Part shown: positions 35 through 25,454 of the stretch, piece after piece
How the letters are laid out: each line of letters starts with the position of its first letter
How positions within the stretch are numbered: the stretch's first letter is position 1
UHGV virus genome: UHGV-0177389
DNA length: 29,218 nucleotides
Source: a virus
Reading direction: 5' to 3' (one strand)
Translations under genes and position numbers: made by a program
Notes under the pieces: model-generated
The model's database searches: none
Seen by the model: only the letters and a program-made list of their open reading frames with translations
What the model was told of the DNA's origin: nothing

Positions 35-349
35 ATGACAGTAAATAAAAATACAGACTTCAACGATAAAAATACAATACATCACAACAACAGCAAAACA
101 TTAATTTCTTATAGTAGCAACATCTATACGGATAAATACCTAAAATACATATCAGAAGATACAATAAAAGAAACCCGCGAAAAGTTAAAAAACATATATT
201 GTGCATCCGGCAGTTTTCACAAATTATCGCCGCAAGAGCGTTTATTCTACGAAGCAAGAAAACAACGTAAGTCAATAATATTACATTATTATGCTGATTC
301 AGGGGAGACACTCATATTTAATATTGGGGTTTCCCCTGAATCATGCTAA
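35..349 (+). CDS. hypothetical protein (104 aa), AT-rich moron-like ORF convergent with the virion gene
   Basis: ORF track 35..349 with ATG start; positions 1-360 are markedly AT-rich compared with the rest of the window; no recognisable motif. Confidence 0.35.
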   Translation: MTVNKNTDFNDKNTIHHNNSKTLISYSSNIYTDKYLKYISEDTIKETREKLKNIYCASGSFHKLSPQERLFYEARKQRKSIILHYYADSGETLIFNIGVSPESC

Positions 350-360: not shown

Positions 361-3300
361 TCACCGCATCACCGGATCCACCTGGTTTATTAGTGGCGCA
401 ATCCAGAACAGGTTATTGCCGGGTATCAGGGTTCGGACATTATGCACAATACGATCACCGGCATCACCATTCAACACTCCTGCGGTCACATCAATGATGC
501 TATCCGCAAGACCAAATGACGGTCCGAATAGAGATCCTACGAATCCACGACTGGCATACCTAGACTGTGTGCCAGTGCCAAATAAAGCCCCCAGCCCAAC
601 AGCACCACCAGTAGCCTTTTCAGCCATATTGTTATATTCCATCAATGGCCCAAGAATACCGGATCTATCTATACCCTCAAGCACCAGCTTCTCTGGTGAC
701 CAGTCAACATTTTTCCCTTTCGATGCTTCTTTAAGCGCATAGACCAGTGAGCCAAGAGCAATCTGAAATGCAGTGCCATAATAAAATTGCGCAGTTCCTT
801 CCTGTAACCCACCAAGTAGCGCACGGTTGTATGAAGCCGTTGTGAATGATTTAAACTGAAATATCGTTCGCCCCATTGGAGTACTCGCCCATAAAGGTGT
901 GTCACCAATACCGGGGGTAATGATAGTGTTATTAACGTCTTTCAGAACCGCTGACTGGAATACTCCGGCAACGTACTGATCGTCCCATTTATCAAAGTTA
1001 CCAATGTGCCATCCATCAATTACCTCACCATGTTTCTCGAACTCACTGCGAATACGCGCAGCCATATTGTCGTTGATACCGAGTTTTGCCATGCGACGTG
1101 CAGAAAACGCACCAGACAAAATACCGTCTGACGTGAGCATTCCGTTCATGGATTTGTTTATGTCATTAAATCGATCCATGAGTGTCAGCTTGCCGAAGGC
1201 ATCAGTAATTCGCTCCATTCCTGCTTCGACTGCTGTTGTCCTGGAAGAACTGTCAACAAGATCACCAATTGCACGAGAACGTGAATGTAGTACAGTTTCC
1301 AATCCAATCCCCATCTTCAACATCTCTTCTTTGCTGGCCTTAAATGCCGGTGATTGGGATATCTGAGAAGCATAGCCTTTCATGGAGTTACGGAAACCAT
1401 TAACCATAACCCCTCTGGCCAGATCTGGAATAGCTGATACTGTCATTCCACCGAGTTTTGTCGTGAAGTTCACATCCCGCAGAAAAGCGCCAGCACGAAC
1501 AAAAAACGAAGACGGGTCATCAGGCATACCATATGTACCAACAAGACGATCGCGTAATGCTGTTATGTCTCTGAGATCATTTGCTCTTGATTTTGAAAGT
1601 CTGGACTGTTCTTTCCGTAATTCCTTTTCGTACTTTCGCATTAATGAATCGAGTTTACCCTGAGGAACAACTTCACCATTGCTCTCATAACGTGCTTTCA
1701 GATTTGCCACACTTTCGTCATATTTTGCCTTTATTTTTTCAGGCACTTCCCGTAACAGACTGTCATATTCGTCCTCAATTAATTGCAGACGCTCTGTCAT
1801 AGTTCGTTTGCCAAATGTTCTCGTCAACTCAATTTCTGCTGCCGCTTCACGGATATGACGTTGTAGAACGTAATTCACATCACTTTCGAGATAATCCCTG
1901 ATAAGACTATCAGGCACATTTAATGTTCTTTCTTTCGTACTACCTGCGGCTTTTACAGAAAATACGCTGACAAAATCCTGTGGAACCTTAGCACCAGTAA
2001 TTTTATTAATTACGATATCCGCTGCAATTTCAGCATCCTCAGGATCCAGTGTTTTATTGCCTCTCGACCACCAGTCAACCAAAATACGTCGAAATTTATC
2101 GCGTTCACTGATTATTTTTCCAACTTTATATATACGTGGGAAATAGCTTGCCTGGCCTAATGCTTTCAGTTCTTCATCTGGCGGCAATAAACCAAGCTTT
2201 TGCATTTCAACCTTCACCCGATTTAATACAGTTCGCATCGCCTGCGCCGTTTCCTGAACAACAGGATTAGCATGCACATCACCGCTTCGCATAGCATTCC
2301 CAACCTGCTGACGAAATGAATCAAAACTCATGTCACCACCATCAGCTTTATACTTTGCGTATGCCTGTTTATTTCCGACAACAACAGCAGCTTCTTCACG
2401 CTGCCATCCACGTGTACGGGTTTCTACAGCTACCGGTGTTTCAATCCCCCTTTCATTTCCTTTAAGGGTGAAATTATTTTCGGCTAACTCCAGCGTTGTT
2501 TTTCGCACTGTCTTGGACGGAGACTCCATTAACCTTGTCAAAGGAGTAAGATAGCTCCCTGCTTTCCATGCAGCCTTTCCAACCACCCCACCGGAAACAG
2601 GGGTTAAATCATCCAGAGTCGCTGTATCAATTTTCATAGCACCAACACTACCACCATCAGAAAGCGAAGCGGCAGCCCTGTCAGTCGCTGATGTAATGCT
2701 CATATTATCAAGAGCATCAGCAACCTCACGCGTGGCTGCAGCCCGGACGGATGGCGAAAGCGCAACACCAGCACTGGCAAACACGCCGCTCATCATCGCA
2801 CCCGCTGCAATGTGAGCGGCACTTTCACCCCATGAGCGTGTTATTTGCTGATTATTCAGCACAACCTCGCTTAATGCTGTACCGGCTGCACCAATCGCAA
2901 TCTGTGAGCCAATACGCGCCAGTGCCCCTCCTTGAGCACCGGGGATAAACATTGACGCAACAGTAACCGGATCCATTCCCGCAGCAATACTGGCAAGGGT
3001 TCCAACTACGCCAGCATCAGACAATAAACGTCTGTCTTCATTTTCATCATCTATCTGCTGCTTAATCCACGCCGTTTCCTCTGGCGATCGGGAATCTGCA
3101 AATTTCGCCCCCCAGTATTCATAACCGTGCAACTCATTTTTATCAGCATATGGGTTATAACCTTCGACCGGTTCAAACTGTCTGGCTGGTCGGAAAAAAC
3201 CAGCCAGAATATTGTTCTGTCGCATTGCAGCCCCCCATACGGAAGGCTCCGGTGGCAATGGCTCAGGATTAGCCCCTTCCGGAAGGGCAACATCAAACCC

Positions 3301-3375
3301 AGTTTGTTCCGGCAAAACATTACCTGACGGGATCAGTCCGTTATTAAGATCTTCAGCTTGTGCATAAACTGGCAT
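361..3375 (-). CDS. large internal virion / DNA-ejection protein (1004 aa), T7 gp16-like by position
   Basis: ORF track; ATG at 3375 overlaps the stop of the upstream gene; last and largest gene of the tail/core module; Gly/Ala-rich segments. Confidence 0.55.
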   Translation of the reverse strand: MPVYAQAEDLNNGLIPSGNVLPEQTGFDVALPEGANPEPLPPEPSVWGAAMRQNNILAGFFRPARQFEPVEGYNPYADKNELHGYEYWGAKFADSRSPEETAWIKQQIDDENEDRRLLSDAGVVGTLASIAAGMDPVTVASMFIPGAQGGALARIGSQIAIGAAGTALSEVVLNNQQITRSWGESAAHIAAGAMMSGVFASAGVALSPSVRAAATREVADALDNMSITSATDRAAASLSDGGSVGAMKIDTATLDDLTPVSGGVVGKAAWKAGSYLTPLTRLMESPSKTVRKTTLELAENNFTLKGNERGIETPVAVETRTRGWQREEAAVVVGNKQAYAKYKADGGDMSFDSFRQQVGNAMRSGDVHANPVVQETAQAMRTVLNRVKVEMQKLGLLPPDEELKALGQASYFPRIYKVGKIISERDKFRRILVDWWSRGNKTLDPEDAEIAADIVINKITGAKVPQDFVSVFSVKAAGSTKERTLNVPDSLIRDYLESDVNYVLQRHIREAAAEIELTRTFGKRTMTERLQLIEDEYDSLLREVPEKIKAKYDESVANLKARYESNGEVVPQGKLDSLMRKYEKELRKEQSRLSKSRANDLRDITALRDRLVGTYGMPDDPSSFFVRAGAFLRDVNFTTKLGGMTVSAIPDLARGVMVNGFRNSMKGYASQISQSPAFKASKEEMLKMGIGLETVLHSRSRAIGDLVDSSSRTTAVEAGMERITDAFGKLTLMDRFNDINKSMNGMLTSDGILSGAFSARRMAKLGINDNMAARIRSEFEKHGEVIDGWHIGNFDKWDDQYVAGVFQSAVLKDVNNTIITPGIGDTPLWASTPMGRTIFQFKSFTTASYNRALLGGLQEGTAQFYYGTAFQIALGSLVYALKEASKGKNVDWSPEKLVLEGIDRSGILGPLMEYNNMAEKATGGAVGLGALFGTGTQSRYASRGFVGSLFGPSFGLADSIIDVTAGVLNGDAGDRIVHNVRTLIPGNNLFWIAPLINQVDPVMR

Positions 3376-10500: not shown

Positions 10501-10550
10501 ATACACTCCTGCAATAAAGGGGCCGAAGCCCCTTGTCTGATCCGCGAGGC

Positions 10551-10886: not shown

Positions 10887-10896
10887 CGATATCACC

Positions 10897-11334
10897 TTAA
10901 CCAGTTACTTTTGAGCGGATCGGATACGGCGTATTGGCATCAACATCAAGACTGATACCAGCAGTGAATTCGCCAGCCGTTAGTGGGCCAGTTGCGACGG
11001 AGTAGTTAACACGCAGATATCGCTGAACACCGGCAGGCACCTTTGCAGAAACAACTCGTTTACCTGCTGTCAGGGCGGTCTTTGCCAGTGCGCCACTATC
11101 ATAAATAGTGGTCCATGAGCTGTTATTCTCACTCGTCTGCAACTGGATGTTTACAGTTGCATCACCGCTTGCCGCGGCGGCTGTGTTAACCAGCGCCCAA
11201 AACTCAAGCGGGTAACCCACGCCGATATCACGACGTTTTCCGTCAATTGGACCGAGATCGATTACGTCAGTAGAAGCCGCGGTATTCGTAACCGCCTGAG
11301 CTTCGGAGAACATCAACAGTTTGTCGGTGATCAT
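10897..11334 (-). CDS. hypothetical virion protein (145 aa), possible capsid decoration protein
   Basis: ORF track; GGAGAAAG RBS; immediately downstream of the major capsid gene; Thr/Ala/Ser-rich. Confidence 0.45.
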   Translation of the reverse strand: MITDKLLMFSEAQAVTNTAASTDVIDLGPIDGKRRDIGVGYPLEFWALVNTAAAASGDATVNIQLQTSENNSSWTTIYDSGALAKTALTAGKRVVSAKVPAGVQRYLRVNYSVATGPLTAGEFTAGISLDVDANTPYPIRSKVTG

Positions 11335-11349
11335 CTTCTTTCTCCATTA

Positions 11350-11369
11350 GTGGGTCTGTTACGACCCAC
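11350..11369 (-). other. stem-loop downstream of the capsid gene (GTGGGTC/GACCCAC), no U-tract
   Basis: 7-bp inverted repeat with 6-nt loop seen in sequence, 17 nt after the capsid stop; possible RNA stability or partial termination element. Confidence 0.3.
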
Positions 11370-11385
11370 AGGTTAATAACAGGCG

Positions 11386-12372
11386 TTACACCACGCGGGC
11401 TTCTGTTTCCAGAAGCGCATCAGTTTCACGGATTGGTACACCACGGAATGAAGTCCACCACTCGCCTTCTGTCTCTTTTACGCTGATCGCCAGAGATGTT
11501 TTCTCCAGAGATTGCAGATCAAGAGCCTGGCCTACAGTGCGGTTCATGTAGAACACCGGGCGACCCATGCCACGATTTGGAATGCGATGCAGTGCTTTAA
11601 CCATCAACTTCGCAATATTTGCGGCAGAGGAAGGTTCTGAAAGATTGCTGACATCGATGTTTGCAATGCGAACAACATAACGCCAGTCACGCAGAGCAAG
11701 TCCGTTGTCCCATTTGTAATGGGTACGGTAGCCTTCGTACTTGCCGCCATTCGCATCTTCCAGTGTCACCTGGCCTTTATCTTCCATCTGGATGCCAGCC
11801 TTCTGCCCTTTCGGGAAGATGCCATGCACGGTGTTTTCGCCCCACACCACTAACCAGATTGAGGTGTTATCTGTACCCGTGCCACCAGCATCAATGATGT
11901 TCTGAGCATTACCCGCAGACAGGCTGGAATAGCGGGAGGACAGTCCCATAAACTGCTGAGGGTTAACGCTGGAATCACCATAAAACAGCGTCTGCGCCAT
12001 CTGCTGATTCATCGCTTCAATAAATGCGCGGTCTTCAGACAGGCGGAATTCAGCGGTATTGCCGTTCAGATCAGCCAGTGACTTATCGACTTCAGCATAG
12101 GTTTCCAGCATGCCAACGGAATCGGTTACCTGCACTGTGGTTGATTTGCTTGGCTGTACGCCATAGTTCAGCAAACGCCAGGTAGCTGAAGGTAAACCAG
12201 AACGAATGGTGGTTCGGTGTCCGGTAGGAAGGTTCCCTTCGACAAAAGGCATATCCTGAAGGATCGGGTTAGTTTGACCGAGAAGCTCGATAATCTTATC
12301 GACTTTCCCGTTTGGATCGACGCGCTTACCCCAGTCAGCCAGCGTTAGCGCAGTTAAGCCTTTAACAGCCAT
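11386..12372 (-). CDS. major capsid protein
   Basis: ORF track 11386..12378; second ATG at 12372 is better spaced from the GAGAGG RBS; about 330 aa, follows the scaffold gene. Confidence 0.7.
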   Translation of the reverse strand: MAVKGLTALTLADWGKRVDPNGKVDKIIELLGQTNPILQDMPFVEGNLPTGHRTTIRSGLPSATWRLLNYGVQPSKSTTVQVTDSVGMLETYAEVDKSLADLNGNTAEFRLSEDRAFIEAMNQQMAQTLFYGDSSVNPQQFMGLSSRYSSLSAGNAQNIIDAGGTGTDNTSIWLVVWGENTVHGIFPKGQKAGIQMEDKGQVTLEDANGGKYEGYRTHYKWDNGLALRDWRYVVRIANIDVSNLSEPSSAANIAKLMVKALHRIPNRGMGRPVFYMNRTVGQALDLQSLEKTSLAISVKETEGEWWTSFRGVPIRETDALLETEARVV

Positions 12373-12386
12373 TGTCATTTCCTCTC

Positions 12387-13082
12387 TTATTTGCCATAGA
12401 GCACTTCGGCCGCACTACGCTGGCCTTCATTACCACCGGTGACCATGCCATCTTCAGACATCGCCTTTCCGATTTTCACGAACGTTTTGACCAGATCAGG
12501 GTGATTACCCAGCCCGGTGGTGTTCAGATATTCTTTGAGTTCAGGTGTCCCGAACTGGTCAAGCGCACGCTGTGCGGCGCTAAGGTTAGAAATCAACTTG
12601 TCGCCACCGATTTCTTTGTCAGCTTTTACATCCGCAGCCCACTGCTCGGTTGTTTTCTGCCAGGCTTCTGCCTGGCGCTGCTGAACACCTGCCAGAATCT
12701 TCGGATAAGCATCAACCAGCTTTTGCGCTTGCTCGTTGGTCAGGTTAAGTTCTCGCGCCACAGGCTCGAATTCCTTCAACGCTTCTGTATCCAGCTCTAC
12801 GCCTTCGGCAGCCTGAAACTCGTACTTCTCAGGCGCACCCTCTGGTTTATTGCCGTCCTTTTTTTCATCCTGCTTATCGTTTTCAGGCTTTTTGTCATCA
12901 GCAGGTTTATCGCCATCAGCAACAGGTTGTGGCTTATCACCTTCCTGTTGTGATGGATCACCAACTGGAGCAGGGTTATCACCTGCAGGCGCTGACGGTT
13001 CTGACGCAGCCGGAGCTGCTCCACCATCGACTGGTTGCTCATTGCAAAGACGGCGATACAGCAAACGCTCAAATAAATTCAT
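12387..13082 (-). CDS. scaffolding protein
   Basis: ORF track 12387..13088 (GTG) trimmed to ATG at 13082 with AGGAG 5 nt upstream; acidic, Pro/Ala/Asp/Lys-rich N-terminal half; lies between portal and capsid genes. Confidence 0.55.
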   Translation of the reverse strand: MNLFERLLYRRLCNEQPVDGGAAPAASEPSAPAGDNPAPVGDPSQQEGDKPQPVADGDKPADDKKPENDKQDEKKDGNKPEGAPEKYEFQAAEGVELDTEALKEFEPVARELNLTNEQAQKLVDAYPKILAGVQQRQAEAWQKTTEQWAADVKADKEIGGDKLISNLSAAQRALDQFGTPELKEYLNTTGLGNHPDLVKTFVKIGKAMSEDGMVTGGNEGQRSAAEVLYGK

Positions 13083-13084
13083 GA

Positions 13085-13381
13085 TCACTCCTGTTCACTG
13101 GCCTCTTTGGCCATCTTCAAATACTGTTCAGGGCAATGCGCCATAACGCGCTGAAACAGTTCCAGCGCCAGATTGCGTTGCCCCTCATTAAATGCCATTG
13201 CCATAGCGTCCATCGGTGAGATAGCGGAAAACACACGGCCTTTCTCCAGCACCGACCAGACAACGCGACGCCCCTGTTCACTGCTCATGACAAAGCGAAT
13301 GTCATCAATTTCACGCTGCGCCATGTCACGTTGCTTACGGGCGTTTTCTTCTTTCAGTTGATCGTCTTCGTAATCTGTCAT
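13085..13381 (-). CDS. hypothetical protein (98 aa)
   Basis: ORF track; ATGA overlap with the portal stop. Confidence 0.45.
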   Translation of the reverse strand: MTDYEDDQLKEENARKQRDMAQREIDDIRFVMSSEQGRRVVWSVLEKGRVFSAISPMDAMAMAFNEGQRNLALELFQRVMAHCPEQYLKMAKEASEQE

Positions 13382-15057
13382 TGTGATTGCCCACCCTGAC
13401 CACTAACTGCATTCGCCATAGCTGACAAAACACTCGGATCCGAAGTTTTAGCTTCGCTTAGCGTCTTGGCACCCTGTGCCGCCGCCATTCCCATCGCCAT
13501 CATTTGTTGCTGCTGTTGCTGCTGTGCCCGTTGCTGGCGAGCCTGCTCAACCTGTTCCTGCGGAACAATGACGGTTGGAGACACTCCGGACATATCAGCG
13601 AATGCATCGATCGCCTGATCAACATTGAGTTTGTCGAGAGCTTCTGGTTTCGCTTGCGCAAGTTGACCAATGAAGTTGACCGTAGACGCCAGACTGGACA
13701 GGCCGATAGACTTCTGCGCCTGAGCCATGACGGAAATGTATTCGACCTTCAGGGGCATACCTTCCATCGCGTCAGGCGGTGGCGGCAGCATGTTTTTACG
13801 CACCATCATCGAGAAAGAGCGGTCAATGAGAGGATTAAGACATTCGTCGTTCAGACGCTCCAGAACCGGCCCCAACATCAGAAGTTTTTCTTCTTTCATT
13901 TCGATCACCGCTTCAACAGGCATCGAGCGGGTATTGATGTTCTGCAACATCATGAACAGATCGACAAAGTAGGCGCTGTTAATGATTTGACGGGTGTCCT
14001 GAATGTCTGCCACCAAATCTGCTGTACTGGGGTTAACCAGATAAGCAGGCCTGAAACCATCCTGACCAGTAATCTGATCGATATACGTGATGTCGCCAGG
14101 AAGAAGGGAGGCACGCTGATTCTTGAGGGAAGTCGGAGCAACCATCGGCGGATTGGTGGCTTTATCAATCAACTCCGACTTGCGCTTCTGGAGAAGCTGC
14201 AATGCCTTAACAGGTCCAAGCGCCAGCATACCCGGGCATGATGATCCATAAACATCTTCACCGTTAACTTCCCAGCGCGGAGCCATAATTGGAAACTCAT
14301 CGAATCCGGACTCACGCAACAACTTGTCGTTATCGCCACCAACCTCGTAATAAACCGATTTGAATGGCTTGTTCTTGCTATCCAGCTTCGATGTATCGCG
14401 GTCAATGTTCGGGTAAACCGAATGCATCACTTCAATCCACTTCTCGTAGGTGCCGCTTTCCCACATGCTTTTTACGGATTCGCTGACGTTATTTAGCCCG
14501 AACTCCTGAACAAGCTGACGAACAGTCATAGAGAACTTGCGAAAACAGGTGTCCACACTGCCACGAGGTGAGTTAGCCAGGTAGTAACTGCCTATCGGGA
14601 ATGGCATTGTGCGAATGATGTCCTCGTCATCCTCCAGCACTGCCATTGCACCAGTGCTGTATGTGCCGAGGCTTCCGTATAACTGCGGCAGCGACTGATA
14701 GAGATTCGACTTATTGAACATATCGTTCATACGGTTCTGCACCGCCTCAAGCCACAACTTAACAGGGCCATAATCCATCATTTCAGGATCTGGCGTAGCC
14801 AGGCGAAACCACGGACGCGCGGGGCTTGTGATGCCTGACATCATGCCGCTGGCGAGAGTGCGCGCCGCCATAGTCCCGGTCGAATCAATAATGCGTGTAT
14901 TGCGTCGATCGTTACGGTTGACCTCAGAAGTCAGAAAGCGGGAACCACGCGGGTTGATGTAATCACTCAACTCGCGCCAGTGCGGCTCGAACGACTGACG
15001 CTCGCTTTCAAGTTGTGCGAACTGTTTGTTCAATCGCTCTTTAGTTGTTTCCGCCAT
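13378..15057 (-). CDS. portal protein (559 aa)
   Basis: ORF track; GGAG RBS 8 nt upstream; size and position between terminase and scaffold/capsid; poly-Gln/Ala C-terminus. Confidence 0.75.
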   Translation of the reverse strand: MAETTKERLNKQFAQLESERQSFEPHWRELSDYINPRGSRFLTSEVNRNDRRNTRIIDSTGTMAARTLASGMMSGITSPARPWFRLATPDPEMMDYGPVKLWLEAVQNRMNDMFNKSNLYQSLPQLYGSLGTYSTGAMAVLEDDEDIIRTMPFPIGSYYLANSPRGSVDTCFRKFSMTVRQLVQEFGLNNVSESVKSMWESGTYEKWIEVMHSVYPNIDRDTSKLDSKNKPFKSVYYEVGGDNDKLLRESGFDEFPIMAPRWEVNGEDVYGSSCPGMLALGPVKALQLLQKRKSELIDKATNPPMVAPTSLKNQRASLLPGDITYIDQITGQDGFRPAYLVNPSTADLVADIQDTRQIINSAYFVDLFMMLQNINTRSMPVEAVIEMKEEKLLMLGPVLERLNDECLNPLIDRSFSMMVRKNMLPPPPDAMEGMPLKVEYISVMAQAQKSIGLSSLASTVNFIGQLAQAKPEALDKLNVDQAIDAFADMSGVSPTVIVPQEQVEQARQQRAQQQQQQQMMAMGMAAAQGAKTLSEAKTSDPSVLSAMANAVSGQGGQSQ

Positions 15058-15071
15058 TTCAATGACTCCGG

Positions 15072-15278
15072 TTACTGACCAAGCAGCGTTTTACCGCTGG
15101 TATTAGCGGTTGATGTGTCGCCCTGAGAACCGGTAAGCAGCGTAGAACTACGACCAGCAGCAGCGCGACGGCGACGAGTTTCTTCGTCGCGGGCATCAAC
15201 AACGGCGGCATCCTGCTCCTGTGGTGCTGCCTGAACTTCTGGTGTTGCAGGCACTGATGGTGAGCTACCCATGCACAT
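15072..15278 (-). CDS. small hypothetical protein (68 aa), low complexity
   Basis: ORF track; start context GGAGTCATTGATATG nearly identical to the portal start context GGAGTCATTGAAATG. Confidence 0.35.
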   Translation of the reverse strand: MCMGSSPSVPATPEVQAAPQEQDAAVVDARDEETRRRRAAAGRSSTLLTGSQGDTSTANTSGKTLLGQ

Positions 15279-15346
15279 ATCAATGACTCCGTACGCAATT
15301 AAATTATTACCAATTTAACCACATATGATTTATTTATCGTAGATGG

Positions 15347-15383
15347 TTGACATTTAATGCACGAATTATTACCCTTCAGGTAA
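15347..15383 (+). promoter_or_regulatory. TTGACA -35-like hexamer followed by a perfect TTACC-N5-GGTAA operator-type palindrome (15369-15383)
   Basis: Seen in sequence; the palindrome matches the immunity-region operators; strand of the promoter is uncertain. Confidence 0.35.
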
Positions 15384-15705
15384 GTAAATAGTTCATTCCG
15401 GTTATTAACCTGACTGGCTTGTCGTTAAATTGAACAGGTGGAGTGAGCTTTTATTTTGAGCAGTACGGCGTATGGCACATGCGCCGATAGCGGTCTGGAT
15501 ACGTTTAAGGGGCACCCTCCCTTGCTCGGGCAAACGAACCAGGTAGCCGGAATGTGCAAGTCGAGCGGTTTTATTCCGCGCACGGGGATTCACCATCCCG
15601 GCGATTCGGTGTGACGCCTCGGAAGAGACGAGGGTGCAACGATGAGAGCATTTATGGAGCCGCGACAAAGTGTGGCGCCTTAACAGGCTAAGTGCTCTCA
15701 GCGTT

Positions 15706-15782
15706 GTGGCATTAGCTCAGTTGGACAGAGCAACCGCCTTCTAAGCGGTTGGTCGCAGGTTCGAATCCTGCATGCCACGCCA
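15706..15782 (+). tRNA. tRNA-Arg (anticodon UCU)
   Basis: Manual cloverleaf: 7-bp acceptor stem GTGGCAT/ATGCCAC, D arm GCTC...GAGC, anticodon stem ACCGC/GCGGT with loop CTTCTAA (anticodon TCT), T arm GCAGG-TTCGAAT-CCTGC, encoded CCA. Confidence 0.9.
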
Positions 15783-15825
15783 GAATCACGCCTAAGGACC
15801 GTGATGCCAGAAGTTCCAGGGGCTT

Positions 15826-15867
15826 GGCGGTGATGGTTTCCCTTGAAGGACTATCACCGCCCTTTTT
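15826..15867 (+). terminator. intrinsic terminator candidate downstream of the tRNA
   Basis: 9-bp stem GGCGGTGAT/ATCACCGCC followed by TTTTT. Confidence 0.55.
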
Positions 15868-15945
15868 ACAGCAGGACGCCATTGCGATGACTTCATGCTG
15901 TAAACCAGTACAGCCACGGAAGGCATAACTCATTGCTTCCAGTTC

Positions 15946-15969
15946 GCCCGGTTCGCCGGGCATTTTTTT
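15946..15969 (+). terminator. intrinsic terminator candidate (GCCCGG-TTCG-CCGGGC plus T7 run)
   Basis: 6-bp GC stem with TTCG tetraloop followed by ATTTTTTT, ending about 16 nt before the ATG at 15986. Confidence 0.6.
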
Positions 15970-15985
15970 AAGGTGAGATTAGACT

Positions 15986-16357
15986 ATGAGTGACAAAGAC
16001 ATTGAATCTGAAATTCAGGCTAAAGGTTTAGCCGCGCCGCGCGTTACGCCAGACCATATCGAGAGCATTATTGCTCAGGAGGCATATTTCACAGCAGAAG
16101 ATGGTGTCTTTGGCGTAGCCATAAAAGCGAAACATACTGGCGGAGAGGTAAACTACCAGCCGCACGAATCACTTTCTCTGCTGACGTTCTGCGTTCTGGT
16201 GCTGCGCAACGGCTTCACCGTCACCGGAGAGAGCGCCTGTGCAAGCCCGGAAAACTTTGATGCGGAAATTGGTCGGAAGATTGCCCGGCAGAATGCTGTA
16301 AACAAAATCTGGATGCTTGAAGGTTACTTGCTGAAGCAGAAGTTAAGCGAGCAATAA
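15986..16357 (+). CDS. hypothetical protein (123 aa), opposite-strand moron inside the morphogenesis module
   Basis: ORF track; ATG preceded by AAGGTGAGA; followed by a palindrome and a terminator; function unknown. Confidence 0.55.
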   Translation: MSDKDIESEIQAKGLAAPRVTPDHIESIIAQEAYFTAEDGVFGVAIKAKHTGGEVNYQPHESLSLLTFCVLVLRNGFTVTGESACASPENFDAEIGRKIARQNAVNKIWMLEGYLLKQKLSEQ

Positions 16358-16361
16358 CACC

Positions 16362-16373
16362 GTGACATGTCAC
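16362..16373. repeat. perfect 12-bp palindrome GTGACATGTCAC, copy 1 (14-bp identity CGTGACATGTCACA with copy 2)
   Basis: Seen in sequence; lies between the 123-aa ORF stop and the terminase large subunit stop. Confidence 0.6.
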
Positions 16374-16377
16374 AAAC

Positions 16378-16404
16378 AGCCAGCCGATGAGCTGGCTTTG
16401 TTTT
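16378..16404 (+). terminator. intrinsic terminator candidate
   Basis: Stem AGCCAGC/GCTGGCT with 6-nt loop followed by TTGTTTT. Confidence 0.6.
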
Positions 16405-16447
16405 ATCCTCACCAGAGGATATCTCCGTCATTATCCCCGCTAACGGA

Positions 16448-17923
16448 TTAAGCATAGGGATCGTAATCTGTAATGGCCTTGCCTTGCTGGTTCTGCTGCC
16501 CGGGAATTCGCAGACGCTTAGACACAGGGAACGCAAACGTCAGCAGTAGCGCATCGCCTTTACCCGGCGAACGCCCAAGCCGCTCCTTGATATCTTCCTT
16601 CGGTTCGATAACGATTTTACCGTCCACTCGAACTTTGTACTCTGCCGCCGACAGGTCGTCTGCTGTTTCCTGGTCATCCAGCATCCCGCCCAGCCTCAGC
16701 CATGTCTTGCATGAGTTGAACATCTCCCCACGCTTGTTGAGCATCTGCGGGTCAGTAGACGCGCCACCGAACGGAACAAGTTGCCATGTACGACCCCAGC
16801 CGTCACCGATTGACTTCAGACCAGTTCCGTAACCGAAGTCGATGAACACTGCGTCAGCCTGGTACTGGTCTTCAAAGTCAGCGATACGCTTCGCCATTAT
16901 CAGATCGTCAGTGGTCTTGTTGCCAGTCCACAGCACCTTACTGTGCAGCCCCTGCCGCAGGTATATCACAGCGTCATCAACTCCGGAGTATGCCGGGTCA
17001 ACGCCGATTATCACCGGAGCATGTGCAACCTGCGCAGCGGTTACCACCCGTTTCATTGCCTCATCAGTAAGACCGGTAGGGATAAACTGCAATTCAGATG
17101 CATCAGGGAATATGCCGCGCACACGGATTTTAACGAAGTCGCTGTCTTCCCCGTAGTCATCAACCCATTTCTGCAACTGCTGTTTGTTAGTACCTTCCAC
17201 CGTCCGGCTGTCAATCTGCGCAGTTTTCCAGCGGTGTTTGTATTTGCGGAAACATTCGCGAAAACGCCCGGTATTACGTGTAGGGTTTCCGAACGCCACC
17301 CAGATAATCTCAGTGTCTTCGTCCGTAAGCGCACCCTCAGCAACTTCCCACACCAGATCCGCAATGTTCGACGCTTCATCGAATACCACGATGATGCGTT
17401 TGCGCTCGTTGTGTAGTCCGGCGAATGCCTCAGTGTTGTGCTCAGACCAGGGGATTGCGTCAGCTCGCCACCGCTTGTCGTGCCCAGGATCATTGCTGTA
17501 CATCGCAGTAGCGGTACAGGTAAACCAGTCTTTCGTGATAGCAAGGTTCGACCACTTGATAATTTCCGGCCAGGTCTTCGTTCGTAGCTGGTTGTCGGTG
17601 TTGGCGGTCACCACGACCTTACAATCCTCGCAAGTGGACATGCCCCAGTTGATCAGCATTGAGATGAATGCGGATTTACCAATACCGTGACCAGAAGCGC
17701 GTGCCAGCATAAGCGGCTGATAGCGCGTCTCTGGATTCTGCAGGTGATCACGTATCTCTCGGAACGCATCAGCCTGCCACTGACGTGGGCCGGTAGCATG
17801 TGCCAGTTCAGTCCCCTCTTCCCCCCACGGGAACGCATAGAGGGCATAGCCAAGCGGATCGTGAGTGAACCCTGCAATATCCTCGATCAACTGCTCTTCA
17901 GGAGATAACGCTGTATCTGTCAC
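16448..17923 (-). CDS. terminase large subunit
   Basis: ORF track (GTG start overlapping the terS stop); Walker A-like GHGIGKS and Walker B-like IIVVFDEAS; 491 aa, upstream of portal. Confidence 0.85.
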   Translation of the reverse strand: MTDTALSPEEQLIEDIAGFTHDPLGYALYAFPWGEEGTELAHATGPRQWQADAFREIRDHLQNPETRYQPLMLARASGHGIGKSAFISMLINWGMSTCEDCKVVVTANTDNQLRTKTWPEIIKWSNLAITKDWFTCTATAMYSNDPGHDKRWRADAIPWSEHNTEAFAGLHNERKRIIVVFDEASNIADLVWEVAEGALTDEDTEIIWVAFGNPTRNTGRFRECFRKYKHRWKTAQIDSRTVEGTNKQQLQKWVDDYGEDSDFVKIRVRGIFPDASELQFIPTGLTDEAMKRVVTAAQVAHAPVIIGVDPAYSGVDDAVIYLRQGLHSKVLWTGNKTTDDLIMAKRIADFEDQYQADAVFIDFGYGTGLKSIGDGWGRTWQLVPFGGASTDPQMLNKRGEMFNSCKTWLRLGGMLDDQETADDLSAAEYKVRVDGKIVIEPKEDIKERLGRSPGKGDALLLTFAFPVSKRLRIPGQQNQQGKAITDYDPYA

Positions 17924-18513
17924 TGATTACCATCCTGACGTTCTTTGAGTCGCTTCCTGGCTGCCGCTATGCGATCAGCAATTGTCACATTCACATTAAC
18001 ATCCAGGCGTTCTTTGAATGCATTGACGTCGACGTGCTTACCAATCAGTTCGAGGTTCTTCACCTTGTCAGGCCATTTAATTTTTTTGAGAATTGTCTCT
18101 ATCGAATCCTCGTTCATGTTCATGATGGTCGATGACAGATCAAAGCCACTAAGCGTAGTGCGCCAGATTTTCGGCCACTCGCGGATTGGCTTAAGGCTCC
18201 CATCGTCATTGAGGATATCAATCACGTCCATCTGGTCGATCTCCACCAGGCGCATGAGAACGTAATCGGCACTGACGCGCATTCGTTTGTTGCGCTCCTC
18301 CATCAACTCGGCAATCCGTTTTTGAATGCGTTCATCGCGCATCATGACACTGGCTTTAACTGCCGCTGTATTTGGGGAGAATCCTGCGTTAATCGCTGCC
18401 TGAGTCTGGTTTTCAGGCGTTTTGATGTATGACTGGCAATAAGCCTCCTGCATTGCGGTTAGTGGCTTAAATTGCGTTGATTTGCGTTTATAGGTTTTAG
18501 GTTCAGCAGGCAT
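17920..18513 (-). CDS. terminase small subunit
   Basis: ORF track 17920..18594 starts at TTG and its N-terminal extension covers a terminator hairpin; trimmed to ATG at 18513 (GGTGG 5 nt upstream; ATG at 18516 is the alternative); basic N-terminus; immediately upstream of terL. Confidence 0.6.
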   Translation of the reverse strand: MPAEPKTYKRKSTQFKPLTAMQEAYCQSYIKTPENQTQAAINAGFSPNTAAVKASVMMRDERIQKRIAELMEERNKRMRVSADYVLMRLVEIDQMDVIDILNDDGSLKPIREWPKIWRTTLSGFDLSSTIMNMNEDSIETILKKIKWPDKVKNLELIGKHVDVNAFKERLDVNVNVTIADRIAAARKRLKERQDGNQ

Positions 18514-18557
18514 CATAACCACCGTGGTAATAGTTACCGTTGTGGTAATAGTACCAT

Positions 18558-18585
18558 GCAAAATAAAGCCGCCATAGTTGGCGGC
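18558..18585 (-). terminator. intrinsic terminator candidate immediately upstream of terS
   Basis: 7-bp stem GCCGCCA/TGGCGGC with 4-nt loop, followed on the minus strand by TTTATTTT. Confidence 0.55.
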
Positions 18586-18626
18586 AGTATTCAAAACCCA
18601 TCAAATTCATCATGCATAATCTACTC

Positions 18627-18638
18627 GTGACATGTCAC
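18627..18638. repeat. perfect 12-bp palindrome GTGACATGTCAC, copy 2
   Basis: Seen in sequence; overlaps the stop of the 115-aa ORF, about 115 nt upstream of the terS start. Confidence 0.6.
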
Positions 18639-18982
18639 ACTATTAATTTCGTTTCATGCCAGCCTTTAGTCACCCAGCATTGCGAGTCACCATTACACGG
18701 GCATGAATTAACGGGAACTCTCTCGCCGCACTTACCGCAAAGTTTTCTGCTGATCGATTTTATACGCCCGCGCACACGTGCATCATCCTGGCGGATCAGC
18801 AGCGCGATGTACTCGGCCATTTCATAGGGATCGCGACCAGGGCGCCGGGCGGCGCAGTTCCGCGCCAGCATTTCCTGCTCCTGCTTATCCAGCACCAGTT
18901 CAATTTTGCGCTCACCGGCGGCGGACTGCCGAGCGCGCTGCGCGGCTTTGCGTTCTGCGGGGGATTTAGCCACGAATCGCAC
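18635..18982 (-). CDS. hypothetical Arg/Ala-rich protein (115 aa) with Cys-rich C-terminus
   Basis: ORF track (GTG start; start uncertain); C-terminal CGKCG...CPCNGDSQC suggests a zinc ribbon; last ORF before terS. Confidence 0.35.
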   Translation of the reverse strand: MRFVAKSPAERKAAQRARQSAAGERKIELVLDKQEQEMLARNCAARRPGRDPYEMAEYIALLIRQDDARVRGRIKSISRKLCGKCGERVPVNSCPCNGDSQCWVTKGWHETKLIV

Positions 18983-19088
18983 TCCACGCCAGATTGATTA
19001 ATGACTCCCAGGTAATATAAACCCGGATACCAGCAACCAGGCCGAAACCAATCACCATGGCATAAAGCAGAGCGTTGCACTTGTTCAT
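18966..19088 (-). CDS. small hydrophobic protein (40 aa), putative membrane peptide
   Basis: Manual translation MNKCNALLYAMVIGFGLVAGIRVYITWESLINLAWSAIRG; ATG overlaps the upstream stop (ATGA) with GGAGGTGA 7 nt upstream; below the ORF-track size cut-off. Confidence 0.4.
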   Translation of the reverse strand: MNKCNALLYAMVIGFGLVAGIRVYITWESLINLAWSAIRG

Positions 19089-19855
19089 CACTTCACCTCC
19101 TGCGGCGGTTCTGGTAGCGGCATCCAGTGGGTTACTTTCGATGCCGGTTCTTCCCCATCGTCAGTAACTGCCCACCATTTGTTTCTCGACCAATCGTAAT
19201 ACCCTTCGAAGGTATCGCACTCAGTCCAGCCGTAAGACTTACCCCAACACCAAACATACTGTTTATCGTTCGGCATTCGCTCACTACAGCTTATCCAACC
19301 ATCCGGAGTTGCCGGAGTTGGTCCATCGAATTCGGGCATGTCAGGACCTTTTCTGATAGCTTTAGCCAGCTCCAGCGGGTCATCGTAAAGCCAGTCGCCA
19401 GTTTGTGGGTGATTTGCTTCTGCAAGCTGCGCAGCCCATTCAAGACCATCTTTTTGACCTTGGAGATAATCAAGCGGCAACTCTTCATGATTACTTGCAG
19501 GTTCGGCACTATGAAGCATGGCAGCGCGGCAGGCGTTCCAGCCTCTTACCTCTGCAATAGCGGCAACCGCATCAACCGCGTACATGCTAAGAGGATTAGG
19601 AATTGGTTTTTCTTCCGGTACTACTGGCGCTGGAGGGGTGGCGTAGAGTGGAACTCCTCCCCCTCCACCAGAAAATTCATTGCGAGCGTTATACTCACGA
19701 CCATCTGCGTCATCACGCATCCACGCCACCGGCTCTGCTTCCAGCGATGCCAGAGCAATTTCATAAGCACGGCGCTCAATATTGTCTCGCACGTCCAGGC
19801 TGCCGATTCGCTCTTTGATTTCTTTAATCAGTTCTTTGTCGGTAAAAGTGGTCAT
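19088..19855 (-). CDS. DUF551-type prophage protein (255 aa)
   Basis: ORF track; Trp-rich C-terminal region (WISCSERMPNDKQYVWCWGK...WMPLPEPP) recalled as typical of DUF551; GGAGAG RBS. Confidence 0.6.
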   Translation of the reverse strand: MTTFTDKELIKEIKERIGSLDVRDNIERRAYEIALASLEAEPVAWMRDDADGREYNARNEFSGGGGGVPLYATPPAPVVPEEKPIPNPLSMYAVDAVAAIAEVRGWNACRAAMLHSAEPASNHEELPLDYLQGQKDGLEWAAQLAEANHPQTGDWLYDDPLELAKAIRKGPDMPEFDGPTPATPDGWISCSERMPNDKQYVWCWGKSYGWTECDTFEGYYDWSRNKWWAVTDDGEEPASKVTHWMPLPEPPQEVK

Positions 19856-19856
19856 G

Positions 19857-20675
19857 TCACTCTCCTTTGATGCGAATGCCAGCGTCAGACATCATATGCA
19901 GATACTCAACTGCATCCTGAACCCATTGACCGCCAATCCCGTAATAGCGATGCGTAATGATGTCGATAGTTACTAACGGGTCTTGTTCGATTAACTTCCG
20001 CAGAAACTCTTCCAGGTCACCAGTGCAGTGCTTGATGACAGGAGTTTTCCCAGGATGGCGAACAACAAGAAACTGATTTCCGACTTCACGGACTTCGTTG
20101 CTTTTCAGTTCTGCAATGCGCTTCTCTGAGGCTTCCAGCTTCTCTCGCATATCGTCAACGTACTCGACCAGAGAACCGCCAGCAGGAATTTCGCACTCCT
20201 CGACCAGTTGGAAGTAGATATCAGCTGCGGCCCGTGTGTTGCTATGCCTAGCGTCGCCCATCTCACCTTCACGAAGAGCATCGCGTTCGGCGGTAAGATT
20301 GGCTATTTTGCTGTCTTTGCCTTCCAGCTCAACGCGCAGCTTCCCTACCGTTAGCGCAATATCCTCGTTCTCCTGGTCGCGGCGTTTGATGTATTGCTGG
20401 TTTCTTTCCCGTTCATCCAGTAATGCCAAGACGGTAGCCGGATTAGCTGCGGCGATGAATTCAGCATTGGCCTGCTGTTCCATTTGGAAATCTTCATCGA
20501 AACCGCTTTCAGGATGCGCTCCTTCAATTCTGCAAATGGGAAGATATCCAACAACGTCACGATGAATTAGCGCATCATCACAATCAAATCGGCTCTCTCC
20601 ATATTCGAGCGACCATACACCACACGTTGCTTTTTCTGCCTTGGCACGCAGTGCCTGATAGTCAATCTTGCTCAT
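19857..20675 (-). CDS. Ea22/ead-like prophage protein (272 aa), probable
   Basis: ORF track; N-terminus MSKIDYQALRAKAEKAT recalled as Ea22-like; central coiled-coil-like region. Confidence 0.5.
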   Translation of the reverse strand: MSKIDYQALRAKAEKATCGVWSLEYGESRFDCDDALIHRDVVGYLPICRIEGAHPESGFDEDFQMEQQANAEFIAAANPATVLALLDERERNQQYIKRRDQENEDIALTVGKLRVELEGKDSKIANLTAERDALREGEMGDARHSNTRAAADIYFQLVEECEIPAGGSLVEYVDDMREKLEASEKRIAELKSNEVREVGNQFLVVRHPGKTPVIKHCTGDLEEFLRKLIEQDPLVTIDIITHRYYGIGGQWVQDAVEYLHMMSDAGIRIKGE

Positions 20676-20676
20676 G

Positions 20677-20976
20677 TCACATCACCCTGAATCCGTTGCA
20701 TTTACGTAAAAAATCGCAGATATAGCCCTTCATTTTTTCATGCCAATCCCGATCATTCCCATTGCACCAACCATCAGGTGGAGTCCAGTTTTCTATCAGA
20801 GCAGCCATTTTCTTTGCTTTCGCCGGAGTAGCTGTTGCGGTATCGCAGTAATGACGAGTGTCAACAAACTTATCCATGCCATCGATATCAAGTACGCAAA
20901 ACCATGTGTGATTCGGCATTTCAACAGATGGTATTTGTTGCCCACGTCGACGTTTATCAATAAGACATACAGTCAT
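20677..20976 (-). CDS. hypothetical protein (99 aa)
   Basis: ORF track; AAGGTGG RBS; ATGA overlap with the upstream gene. Confidence 0.45.
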   Translation of the reverse strand: MTVCLIDKRRRGQQIPSVEMPNHTWFCVLDIDGMDKFVDTRHYCDTATATPAKAKKMAALIENWTPPDGWCNGNDRDWHEKMKGYICDFLRKCNGFRVM

Positions 20977-21518
20977 GGTTCCACCTTCTCTATTTGCTTA
21001 AGACCGTCTCTCACTGCATTAAGTACGCGTTCCAGATACTGGTATTTCGGGTTTGGTATCGTTGGCCAGTTGGCATACCACGGCTCATCACCAAAGAGAT
21101 TCAGTAGTTTGTTACCGACGCCGAAACAGCAGCAGCTTTCTTTTACGTCATCGGCGTTTTCCGCCTCGTACCACATTTCGCGAGCCAGTACGGCGTCGAT
21201 TTCTCTCTCTCTTCGTAACTTTATGATTTCTGACTTCACGAAAAGCAGATTTGCATCGTTGTCATCGTCGACCGTGCTTCGCAGTTGAGGGTCGAAATTG
21301 TCGATTAGATAGTCGTTGCTGACTCGCTTAATGAACGTCTGCACATCATCACCGCCCATAGCAAACCAAGCCGCAGTCCACGCTTTTCCGTAGCAGGTGA
21401 TGGTGATTCTTCCCTTTCCAGGTTCATAGTTTTCAATCATCACTCGAACCGGATCTAGTCTCTCTGCACCGGTTATAACGAATGACAACACATCAATCTT
21501 TTCAACCGTTACACTCAC
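20973..21518 (-). CDS. hypothetical protein (181 aa)
   Basis: ORF track 20973..21551 trimmed to GTG at 21518, which overlaps the upstream stop with GGAGG upstream; acidic, contains CCC. Confidence 0.45.
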   Translation of the reverse strand: MSVTVEKIDVLSFVITGAERLDPVRVMIENYEPGKGRITITCYGKAWTAAWFAMGGDDVQTFIKRVSNDYLIDNFDPQLRSTVDDDNDANLLFVKSEIIKLRREREIDAVLAREMWYEAENADDVKESCCCFGVGNKLLNLFGDEPWYANWPTIPNPKYQYLERVLNAVRDGLKQIEKVEP

Positions 21519-21994: not shown

Positions 21995-22055
21995 CTTTAC
22001 CCTCGCTTATCCACATAACTTATTGATTACATTGATAACTAAATAGATCGTCGAT

Positions 22056-22403: not shown

Positions 22404-22406
22404 GAT

Positions 22407-22483: not shown

Positions 22484-22496
22484 TCATATAGACGTA

Positions 22497-22515
22497 AAAA
22501 AATGCGCTATCGCGC
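22497..22515 (-). terminator. weak intrinsic terminator candidate after the P-like gene
   Basis: 4-bp GC stem with 4-nt loop followed on the minus strand by ATTTTTTT; stem is short. Confidence 0.3.
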
Positions 22516-24869: not shown

Positions 24870-25454
24870 ATGAAAAGTATCCAGGACGTCCGCAGGCAAA
24901 ATCTCAACGACTTGATCGACCGTGAATTCAATGGTGTTCAGACGCGGATGGCTGAAAAACTTGGAACTCAGGCAAATCTGGTAAACCGCTGGGCTCTTGG
25001 TAAGAAGGTTATCGGCGATCAGGTTGCGCGAAAAATTGAAGCTGCCGCCAATAAACCCCGTAACTGGCTTGATATCGATCGCTCGCTTTCTCAGGAAGGT
25101 TTTCAGCCTGTCGGCCCAAGCGACATTGGCCAGCTGGCGGCTCACAACCTGGAACGCTGGATGAGCGAAAGCCGCGACCTTTCAACACAGGGAAAACTTC
25201 ACCGCGCATCCGGCGTAGCCCAGGTGACAATCAGCCGCCTGTTAAACAATGAGGTCAGCGTTTCCATTTCCACCCTGGAGAATGTTGCATCCGCATTCGG
25301 GCGTCACGGCTATGAATTACTGATTCACCCGCACGACCCTGCGACCATCAACTATGATCGCTCGCGCTACGCATTGTTACCCGAAACCGAGAAAGCAAAG
25401 ATCGAAAGTTACATTGAATTTGTCATCAACCAGAACGAAAAAAACAAACAATAA
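24870..25454 (+). CDS. prophage repressor (194 aa) with two predicted HTH segments and no recognisable S24 peptidase domain
   Basis: ORF track; HTH-like TRMAEKLGTQANLVNRW and ASGVAQVTISRLLNNE; divergent from the cro-like gene; operators on both sides. Confidence 0.6.
   Translation: MKSIQDVRRQNLNDLIDREFNGVQTRMAEKLGTQANLVNRWALGKKVIGDQVARKIEAAANKPRNWLDIDRSLSQEGFQPVGPSDIGQLAAHNLERWMSESRDLSTQGKLHRASGVAQVTISRLLNNEVSVSISTLENVASAFGRHGYELLIHPHDPATINYDRSRYALLPETEKAKIESYIEFVINQNEKNKQ

Follow-up and report, generated by a model that had tools for sequence, protein, structure and literature searches.

A short gene on the plus strand lies among the minus-strand virion genes of the viral DNA analysed here (29,218 nucleotides, referred to as the window), which raises the question of what its 123-residue product does and when in the phage life cycle it is made. 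The preliminary description of the locus had regarded the gene as a moron, had considered its family not assignable from sequence, and had proposed an accessory role in either defence or anti-defence. The open reading frame was confirmed exactly: it occupies 15986..16357 on the plus strand, starts with the ATG at 15986, ends with the TAA at 16355-16357, and encodes 123 amino acids plus a stop codon.

Family membership of the 123-residue protein

In Pfam, the protein matched PF13876 with an E-value of 2.4e-35 and 121.3 bits, compared with the curated gathering cut-off of 27 bits, and residues 20-120 covered positions 1-82 of the 82 profile positions. The family was thus assignable after all. 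This match and the existence of at least 8000 homologous protein clusters place the open reading frame far beyond chance, and the gene is real. In Pfam, PF13876 is named the 'Phage protein (N4 Gp49/phage Sf6 gene 66) family', Phage_gp49_66. In PHROGs, the protein was assigned to phrog_322, and only families of 'unknown function' were retrieved. A search of NCBIfam gave no match, and Pfam revealed no second domain of the Tad2 (PF11195) or Sequestin (PF21825) type. Homology to a structural or housekeeping phage protein, which the preliminary description had named as a ground for abandoning the accessory role, was looked for and was not found.

The family is large and widespread. The homologues detected among 5.8 billion proteins formed at least 8000 protein clusters, and all 120 of the 120 listed carry PF13876; the NCBI label of the homologues listed is 'Gp49 family protein'. 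One homologue cluster, P0052, carries a fused PF21825. With tblastn, the family was found in 623 phage records from many host genera, almost always annotated as 'hypothetical protein', and its members include proteins of strictly lytic phages, e.g. N4 and SPO1.

PF13876 is the Acb4 family, which has 1,331 members in Pfam and the founding member of which is Acb4 of Bacillus phage SPO1 (Chang et al., bioRxiv 10.1101/2024.12.30.630793). According to the same study, SPO1 Acb4 has 96 amino acids and forms a pinwheel tetramer, as seen in a crystal structure with cGAMP and by SEC-MALS. The tetramer takes up four 3'3'-cGAMP molecules (Kd about 157 nM), and three protomers contribute to each pocket; further ligands are 2'3'-cGAMP, 3'2'-cGAMP and cUA, but not c-di-GMP. 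In vitro, SPO1 Acb4 blocks a CBASS effector, and it also rescues a T4 mutant from CBASS that signals with cUA. All eight of the eight diverse homologues tested bound 3'3'-cGAMP, those from phages of Gram-negative hosts also bound 3'3'-c-di-AMP, and AF3 yielded confident tetramers for all eight homologues modelled (Chang et al.). Table S3 of that study lists proteins of phiV10 (Q287B5), the O157 typing phages 9 and 10, epsilon15 (A0AR14), Sf6 (Q716B1) and N4 (A0MZD7). A single residue of the 123 distinguishes Q287B5 from the window protein, an A where the window protein has V at position 105 (V105A).

The similarity to Acb4 proteins was recovered by several routes. A phmmer search of the PDB gave one meaningful match, chain A of 9E4W, 'anti-CBASS 4 (Acb4)' (E 0.0068), in which residues 67-108 of the window protein align without gaps to chain residues 39-80. 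A family alignment of 64 homologues, each at least 70% identical overall to the window protein, was compared with SPO1 Acb4 using hhalign, and a probability of 95.2 (E 2.4e-8) was obtained. N4 Acb4 is 46% identical to the window protein over 107 residues (E 6e-30). Two direct orthologues are closer still: p50 of Salmonella phage epsilon15 occupies the same slot and is 79% identical, and the C-terminal half of gp66 (gene 66) of Shigella phage Sf6 is nearly identical to residues 65-123. The orthologues of phiV10 (p03), epsilon15 and Sf6 differ from the window protein mainly in a hypervariable insert, and their public records give no function ('hypothetical protein' or 'Gp49 family protein').

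By its sequence, the gene is a member of the Acb4 family (PF13876) and, because of this membership, a phage anti-defence gene of a known kind rather than a new one; it is referred to as acb4 in the following. The gene is of phage origin, lying between terL and portal in a phiV10-like window. The anti-defence branch of the earlier proposal is therefore upheld, also by the listing of the phiV10 orthologue as an Acb4 homologue. The defence branch is not: a search of PADLOC-DB v2 with the protein returned 0 defence families at E <= 1, and the Acb4 family acts in counter-defence. That PF13876 is Acb4 and that the phiV10 orthologue is among its homologues had already been published. The present analysis established family membership, predicted fold, locus anatomy and operator distribution, and it adds to the published work a cargo hot spot, the absence of an adjacent promoter, an operator-overlapped promoter candidate and the hypervariable insert. 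Our literature search found no experiment on an Acb4 orthologue of a Uetakevirus; in Chang et al., the identities of the homologues tested are given only in a figure.

Taken at a probability of about 0.8, our main reading is that the protein would act as an Acb4-family sponge for CBASS dinucleotides, encoded by a lytic-cycle cargo gene of a Uetakevirus.

Predicted fold, ligand pocket and hypervariable insert

An AlphaFold2 monomer model was generated from the 64-sequence alignment (mean pLDDT 85.9, pTM 0.73). It contains helices at residues 3-16, 22-28, 37-51, 61-65 and 93-122 and strands at 29-36, 67-73 and 78-83, and the predicted fold is that of Acb4, with helices at the N terminus, a sheet of three antiparallel strands and long helices at the C terminus. 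The protein can thus be divided into an N-terminal helix extension (1-17), beta1 (29-36), the hypervariable insert (38-62), beta2-beta3 (67-83) and the long C-terminal helix (93-122). When the model was compared with the PDB using Foldseek, the top 13 matches were the 13 chains of 9E4W, each with a probability of 1.00, E-values from 3.6e-3 to 1.1e-2 and TM-scores of 0.60-0.70 normalised on the target. The next match had a probability of 0.18, and none of the others exceeded 0.25. The structure prediction proposed in the preliminary description thus led to Acb4 as the top match.

SPO1 Acb4 and the window protein are both small stand-alone phage proteins of one Pfam family with a core of helix, three-stranded sheet and long C-terminal helix, and the conserved motif region N-G-F...G.S...P.NF..E.G aligns without gaps at window residues 67-108. 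Overall similarity is modest, with 25% identity, which was weighed against our main reading; the window protein exceeds SPO1 Acb4 in length by 27 residues, and SPO1 is a lytic Bacillus myovirus, whereas the window protein comes from a temperate podovirus of a Gram-negative host. The ligand contacts of SPO1 Acb4 were transferred to the window protein with a constant offset: within window residues 67-108, the SPO1 number is the window number minus 29. Three of the ten contacts, at aromatic and hydrophobic positions, are kept (F48>F77, F62>F91 and I66>I95). The other seven are changed: the guanine-specific contacts (K36>L65 and E49>T78), the phosphate contacts (Y57>A86, T70>I99 and K81>M110), and V56>C85 and N63>D92. 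The contact of N63 in SPO1 Acb4 is made by the backbone.

The pocket was also compared with that of N4 Acb4 (A0MZD7, the 'N4 Gp49' of the Pfam name). N4 also infects E. coli, its Acb4 has an insert between beta1 and beta2 at the matching position, and it carries F, T, C and F at the positions of F77, T78, C85 and F91. Because N4 Acb4 matches at these four positions, the pocket of the window protein is, judged by its residues, of the Gram-negative type. In E. coli, N4 Acb4 acts as a sponge for cyclic nucleotides, as seen from activation of the defence system Panoptes; it is both necessary and sufficient to trigger Panoptes, which senses the loss of 2'3'-c-di-AMP. Since this functional protein shares the pattern around T78 and C85, the divergence from SPO1 is no argument against binding. 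PanS/PanE, a DAC-based system, also responds to phages that encode Acb4, and a Pseudomonas Acb4-Sequestin fusion acts as a sponge as well. The N4 protein differs from the window protein at both ends, as the N-terminal MSDKDIESEIQAKGL helix is missing and the C-terminal tail is rich in Cys, and its gene lies in an anti-defence hot spot in the early region of a lytic phage, whereas the window gene lies between terL and portal.

In our view, the loss of the guanine-reading pair K36/E49 fits the broader purine tolerance reported for members from Gram-negative phages, and with seven of ten SPO1 contact residues changed, the residues of the pocket do not spell out a ligand set. These changes, including both guanine-reading residues, also leave room for an Acb4-fold sponge for a ligand outside CBASS, such as a cyclic trinucleotide, the Thoeris signals gcADPR or His-ADPR, or a cyclic oligoadenylate of type III CRISPR, with a specificity tuned by the insert. 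Specificity does shift within the family, c-di-AMP being bound only by members from Gram-negative phages, and the insert at 38-62 is hypervariable in both sequence and length. However, eight of eight diverse homologues bound 3'3'-cGAMP, and N4 Acb4, with the same insert position and the same pocket pattern, acts on signals of the c-di-AMP type. Moreover, binding of Thoeris signals has been reported for fused Tad2 or Sequestin domains and not for stand-alone Acb4 domains; the window protein has no second domain. We therefore regard a ligand outside CBASS as unlikely.

A sponge for CBASS dinucleotides is thus the reading that we prefer, and its mechanism, the tetramer and the ligands are taken from the literature. 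By homology, four copies of the protein would assemble into a pinwheel tetramer, the inter-subunit pockets of which would sequester 3'3'-cGAMP and related cyclic dinucleotides used as CBASS signals. Species of c-di-AMP would probably also be bound, as in other members from Gram-negative phages. The dinucleotides that host CD-NTases make upon infection would be withdrawn, the CBASS effector would never be switched on, and the phage would complete its cycle. Acb2, Tad1, Tad2 and Sequestin follow the same logic, being small homo-oligomers that sequester immune second messengers in interface pockets, but their folds are unrelated to that of Acb4.

Two parts of the window protein go beyond SPO1 Acb4, namely the 17-residue N-terminal helix MSDKDIESEIQAKGLAA and the 25-residue insert (38-62) between beta1 and beta2. 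Across the 64 homologues, the mean identity to the window protein is 0.78 for residues 1-37 and 0.91 for residues 63-123, compared with 0.35 for the insert, the length of which varies from 14 to 30 residues. At the DNA level, the 3' two-thirds of the gene are about 94% identical to genes of unrelated lambdoid and Stx phages, and the gene itself is therefore mosaic. A conserved N-terminal helix and a hypervariable insert of 14-30 residues between beta1 and beta2 characterize the enterobacterial clade of Acb4 proteins that includes the window protein.

The interval between terL and portal

The window is, as judged from genome alignments, a mosaic phiV10-like relative within the genus Uetakevirus. 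Positions 6019-18634 correspond to the reverse complement of phiV10 1-12616 (98.4% identity) and positions 21823-29218 to phiV10 28322-35727 (97.9% identity); most of the segments 1-6018 and 18973-21822 does not resemble phiV10. The neighbours of acb4 are all encoded on the minus strand: portal (13378..15057) and the 68-residue gp3 homologue (15072..15278) on one side, terL (16448..17923) and terS (17920..18594) on the other. In the phiV10 record, the orthologue PhiV10p03 is annotated as 'hypothetical protein, similar to gene 66 of Sf6' and is the sole opposite-strand protein gene among p01-p21. The description of acb4 as the only opposite-strand protein gene of the structural module thus holds for its surroundings, with one qualification for the window: a second opposite-strand open reading frame, which is AT-rich (GC 0.32) and occupies 35..349, is found immediately beyond the last virion gene.

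The interval from terL to gp3 was aligned across five Uetakeviruses, represented by the window/phiV10, epsilon15, phiv142-3, TL-2011b and SPN1S. A fixed scaffold is common to all five; its 5' part extends to a hairpin (T2) and an AAGGTG ribosome-binding site, and its 3' part consists of a palindrome and a terminator. What lies between the two parts differs. The window/phiV10 slot holds acb4 with 123 codons and the epsilon15 slot an acb4 gene of 121 codons (PF13876, E 3.8e-37); the slot of phiv142-3 contains only an 8-codon open reading frame, that of TL-2011b a 115-residue protein of PHROG 3163, the function of which is not known, and that of SPN1S a 125-residue lipoprotein-like protein (PHROG 11227/200). 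The interval between terL and gp3/portal is thus a cargo hot spot that is occupied by acb4, by other small genes or by nothing.

The signals that flank acb4 belong to the scaffold. The gene does have a ribosome-binding site and a terminator, as described earlier. The Shine-Dalgarno-like sequence AAGGTGAG (15970..15977, plus strand) precedes the ATG by 8 nt. Conservation of the TTTTTTTAAGGTG segment extends to phiv142-3, SPN1S and epsilon15 regardless of the gene that comes after it, and the Shine-Dalgarno sequence is part of the conserved scaffold, not of the cargo. On the 3' side, the variable cargo is bounded by a perfect palindrome (GTGACATGTCAC, 16362..16373), which epsilon15 and SPN1S share and which phiv142-3 has in the form GTGACACGTCAC. 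The palindrome is followed by an intrinsic terminator detected by a terminator scan at 16378..16406 on the plus strand, which has a 7-bp stem (hairpin 16378-16397, 21 nt after the acb4 stop codon) and an TTGTTTTAT tail. This terminator is annotated as such in phiV10, is conserved in five of the five phages compared, and is convergent with terL; it belongs to the shared 3' scaffold, not to the cargo, and is possibly weakly bidirectional.

Two additional terminator-like hairpins were found upstream of the gene in the terminator scan, both on the plus strand. T1 (14 base pairs followed by CTTTTTAC) is located at 15826..15871, and T2 (GCCCGG-TTCG-CCGGGC followed by ATTTTTTT) at 15946..15969. The acb4 start codon begins 24 nt after the T2 stem and 16 nt after the end of T2. 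In SPN1S and epsilon15, the T2 stem is kept by a compensatory change from GG/CC to AC/GT, and the T2 counterpart is annotated as a rho-independent terminator in the epsilon15 record. The phiV10 open reading frame p04 (15712..15963, minus strand) was considered as an explanation for the conservation between the hairpins and was rejected; it is disrupted by 1-nt and 4-nt indels in relatives and runs antisense to the tRNA.

This tRNA gene, a tRNA-Arg with the anticodon UCU, was detected by ARAGORN at 15706..15782 on the plus strand, 204 bp upstream of acb4 and upstream of T1, and was the only hit in an Rfam search of 15000-16600 (RF00005, 73 bits). The tRNA gene and acb4 do not travel together, contrary to the preliminary description: phiv142-3, TL-2011b and SPN1S have the tRNA without acb4, and epsilon15 has acb4 without the tRNA. 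The idea of a linked unit was rejected for this independent occurrence and for the codon usage of acb4, which contains neither AGA nor AGG.

The location of acb4 downstream of a tRNA and of a structured 322-nt leader (z = -2.96) could also suggest that the protein binds RNA like a dsRBD and serves the processing of phage RNA, i.e. the tRNA precursor or the leader, instead of antagonizing immunity. The Acb4 monomer indeed resembles a dsRNA-binding domain (Chang et al.), and an RNase III site is predicted for the corresponding intergenic region in the epsilon15 record. We regard such a role as scarcely credible, as the tRNA is found without acb4 and acb4 without the tRNA, Acb4 is the closest match in structure, no dsRBD protein was among the significant Foldseek matches in the PDB, and family members bind cyclic dinucleotides in pockets at oligomer interfaces, not RNA.

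Candidate promoter, operators and predicted timing of expression

A strict scan of 15000-16600 did not reveal a sigma-70-like promoter, and a loose scan found none between 15431 and 15985 and none between the tRNA and acb4; after both scans, the idea that acb4 has its own promoter was dropped. The absence of an adjacent promoter, together with a canonical terminator directly before the Shine-Dalgarno sequence, was counted against our main explanation. The loose scan did uncover a candidate sigma-70 promoter farther upstream, TTGACA-N17-TACCCT at 15347..15375 on the plus strand, which reads toward the tRNA and acb4. Its TTGACA at 15347 is a perfect -35 hexamer, which no other plus-strand promoter-like site in 15250-16000 has.

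The -10 region of this candidate overlaps a palindromic operator, TTACC-N5-GGTAA, at 15369..15383. The motif occurs ten times in the window, compared with an expectation of 0.48. Pairs of sites flank an HTH repressor gene (24870..25454) at 24752/24800 and 25512/25574, and further sites are located before terS (18516/18534) and at 22407/22469 and 24415. Epsilon15 contains 15 sites, of which three precede and three follow its repressor gene, and the epsilon15 record annotates the equivalent of the site at 15369 as 'repressor; lysogeny'. Across the five phages, the TTGACA and the operator half-sites are invariant, and the operator spacer varies. A search for published operator or transcript data on phiV10, ZX5 and SPC32H found none; it did not extend to the genome paper on epsilon15 or to the papers on the repressor of SPC32H.

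Because the repressor operator overlaps the only promoter-like site upstream, lytic rather than lysogenic expression is predicted. From the positions of the motifs, the rightward transcript of the tRNA and acb4 should be silent in the lysogen and should be made after infection or induction. Both the timing and the route of expression are what we infer from this arrangement: transcription of acb4 would take place in the lytic cycle and start at the repressor-controlled promoter 640 bp before the gene. It would extend into acb4 only if the two terminator-like hairpins T1 and T2 are passed through read-through or antitermination, and it would not occur in the repressed prophage. The palindrome at 15369-15383 could equally control the divergent gp3/portal unit. 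Expression in the lytic cycle fits an early anti-defence role and argues against lysogenic conversion.

Lysogenic conversion would be the function of a classical moron, i.e. a gene expressed from the prophage to the benefit of the lysogen, for example by excluding superinfecting phages or by damping abortive-infection signalling of the host. Several features of the locus are compatible with such a function: the content of the cargo slot differs between related phages, acb4 has its own Shine-Dalgarno sequence and terminator, the alternative cargo of SPN1S is lipoprotein-like and thus of a type often involved in exclusion, and the whole tRNA-gene locus is found as prophage in 223 of 5,426 complete E. 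coli genomes. The designation as a moron is supported by the variable presence between the same flanks and by the terminator. It is not supported by the promoter scans, nor by base composition, as the GC content of acb4 (0.495) is not atypical for the window (0.493; terL 0.541, portal 0.515). In the strict sense of Hendrix/Juhala, an autonomous accessory transcription unit within the late region of a phage, acb4 is hence no moron. Further evidence against prophage expression is that a repressor operator contains the -10 region of the sole promoter-like site upstream, that no PADLOC defence model matched the protein, and that the family occurs in the strictly lytic phages N4 and SPO1, in which lysogenic conversion is impossible. 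Taken together, we consider lysogenic conversion very improbable, and we retain the reading of acb4 as a lytic-cycle anti-CBASS gene.

A more speculative extension of this reading, to which we assign a low probability, combines three elements. The enterobacterial Acb4 clade would differ from the SPO1 and N4 proteins in its ligand range or by a second activity, its insert would be diversifying under pressure from sponge-sensing systems of the Panoptes/Panoptoo type, and the gene would be wired into repressor-controlled early expression of Uetakeviruses via terminator read-through. If true, such early wiring would be an unusual regulation for an anti-defence gene inside the late region.

The assignment has consequences for annotation as well as for the use of these phages. 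acb4 and about 8000 or more relatives that are currently labelled 'hypothetical protein' or 'Gp49 family protein' can be relabelled as Acb4-family anti-CBASS sponges. The terL-portal junction of the Uetakeviruses, a fixed scaffold in which accessory genes are swapped, is a convenient place to seek further counter-defence genes. Lastly, phages of the phiV10 type serve as reporter and typing phages for E. coli O157; the presence of Acb4 predicts that they resist hosts with CBASS and that they are sensitive to the sponge-sensing systems Panoptes and Panoptoo, which could affect their host range.

Mosaicism relative to phiV10 and within acb4

The window was compared with phiV10 using blastn. Nucleotides 1-6018 and 18973-21822 had almost no match in phiV10, apart from 149 bp (20323-20471), and the remaining window was 98% identical to it. 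By this comparison, the genes for the two largest virion/ejection proteins (930 and 1004 aa) as well as part of the early region are replaced, which makes the window a mosaic genome related to phiV10 rather than phiV10 itself. At the positions where the phiV10 record begins and ends, the window sequence continued without a break, a pattern consistent with a prophage or with a genome whose permutation differs.

Sequence exchange seems to have reached the putative anti-CBASS gene acb4 (15986..16357, + strand) itself. The 3'-two-thirds of the gene (16035-16351) had about 94% DNA identity to genes of the unrelated phages vB_EcoS_ASO78B and Stx2_112991, a Stx2a-converting phage, and the 5'-third lacked such identity. 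Because the identity is confined to one part of the gene, the alignment indicates recombination inside acb4.

The leader and the T1-T2 segment upstream of acb4

The 322-nt leader from the candidate promoter to the tRNA (15384-15705) had a minimum free energy of -120.4 kcal/mol (z = -2.96) and was more stable than its shuffled versions, 0 of 100 of which were equally good. A search of the leader against Rfam yielded no match. In the epsilon15 record, IHF and RNase III sites are predicted in the equivalent region.

The segment of about 100 nt between the terminator-like hairpins T1 and T2 (15862-15969) was strongly conserved in all five Uetakeviruses, including epsilon15, which has no tRNA. It carries 1-nt and 4-nt indels among these phages and is therefore not coding, and a compensatory change was found in the stem of T2. 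The segment could act as a regulatory element or encode a small RNA. The p04 ORF annotated in phiV10 (15712..15963, - strand) is probably spurious, given that it is antisense to the tRNA and that the conserved segment contains indels.

Borders of the cargo slot and other accessory candidates

At the 3'-border of the variable cargo, a perfect 12-bp palindrome was found (GTGACATGTCAC, 16362-16373), which was kept in epsilon15 and SPN1S and, with one change, in phiv142-3. A protein could bind there, or the palindrome could serve as a site of recombination. In phiv142-3, which lacks acb4, an 8-codon mini-ORF (MKYEFDGF, L003 about 2090-2120) directly follows the common SD motif, and in epsilon15 a similar one (MKDEFDRF, L006 about 2363-2390) overlaps the acb4 stop codon (ATGA). 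The mini-ORF, absent from the window, may be what is left of the ancestral slot, or a scar of recombination.

Two other phages carry different cargo in the slot. The SPN1S ORF (L005 2338-2715, 125 aa), which its record annotates merely as a 64-aa fragment, has a lipobox-like N-terminus and was assigned to PHROG 11227 'protease' and PHROG 200 'lipoprotein'. The TL-2011b protein (L004 2180-2527, 115 aa) is repeat-rich and belongs to PHROG 3163 (unknown). Each of these two proteins is a candidate for an accessory or conflict-related role. Judged by composition, a better 'moron' candidate than acb4 is a second opposite-strand ORF (35-349, + strand, 104 aa), directly beyond 361..3375 (- strand), the last of the large virion genes. 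This ORF is very AT-rich (GC 0.32 versus 0.49 in the window) and had no match in Pfam.

TTACC-N5-GGTAA sites and the terS start

The 15-bp palindrome TTACC-N5-GGTAA (extended form ATTACC...GGTAAT) occurred ten times in the window, at 15369, 18516, 18534, 22407, 22469, 24415, 24752, 24800, 25512, and 25574, versus 0.48 expected copies; epsilon15 contains 15 sites. Two sites (18516-18548) fall inside the long terS ORF (17920-18594, - strand, TTG start at 18594). The true terS start is probably downstream of both, because terS is annotated shorter (594 nt) in the record of O157 typing phage 9. Sites border the HTH repressor gene (24870..25454) on either side, and others lie ahead of terS, of the gp3/portal unit, and of two units in the early region. 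Such a distribution suggests a network of operators extending over the whole genome, through which a single repressor would directly silence several operons.
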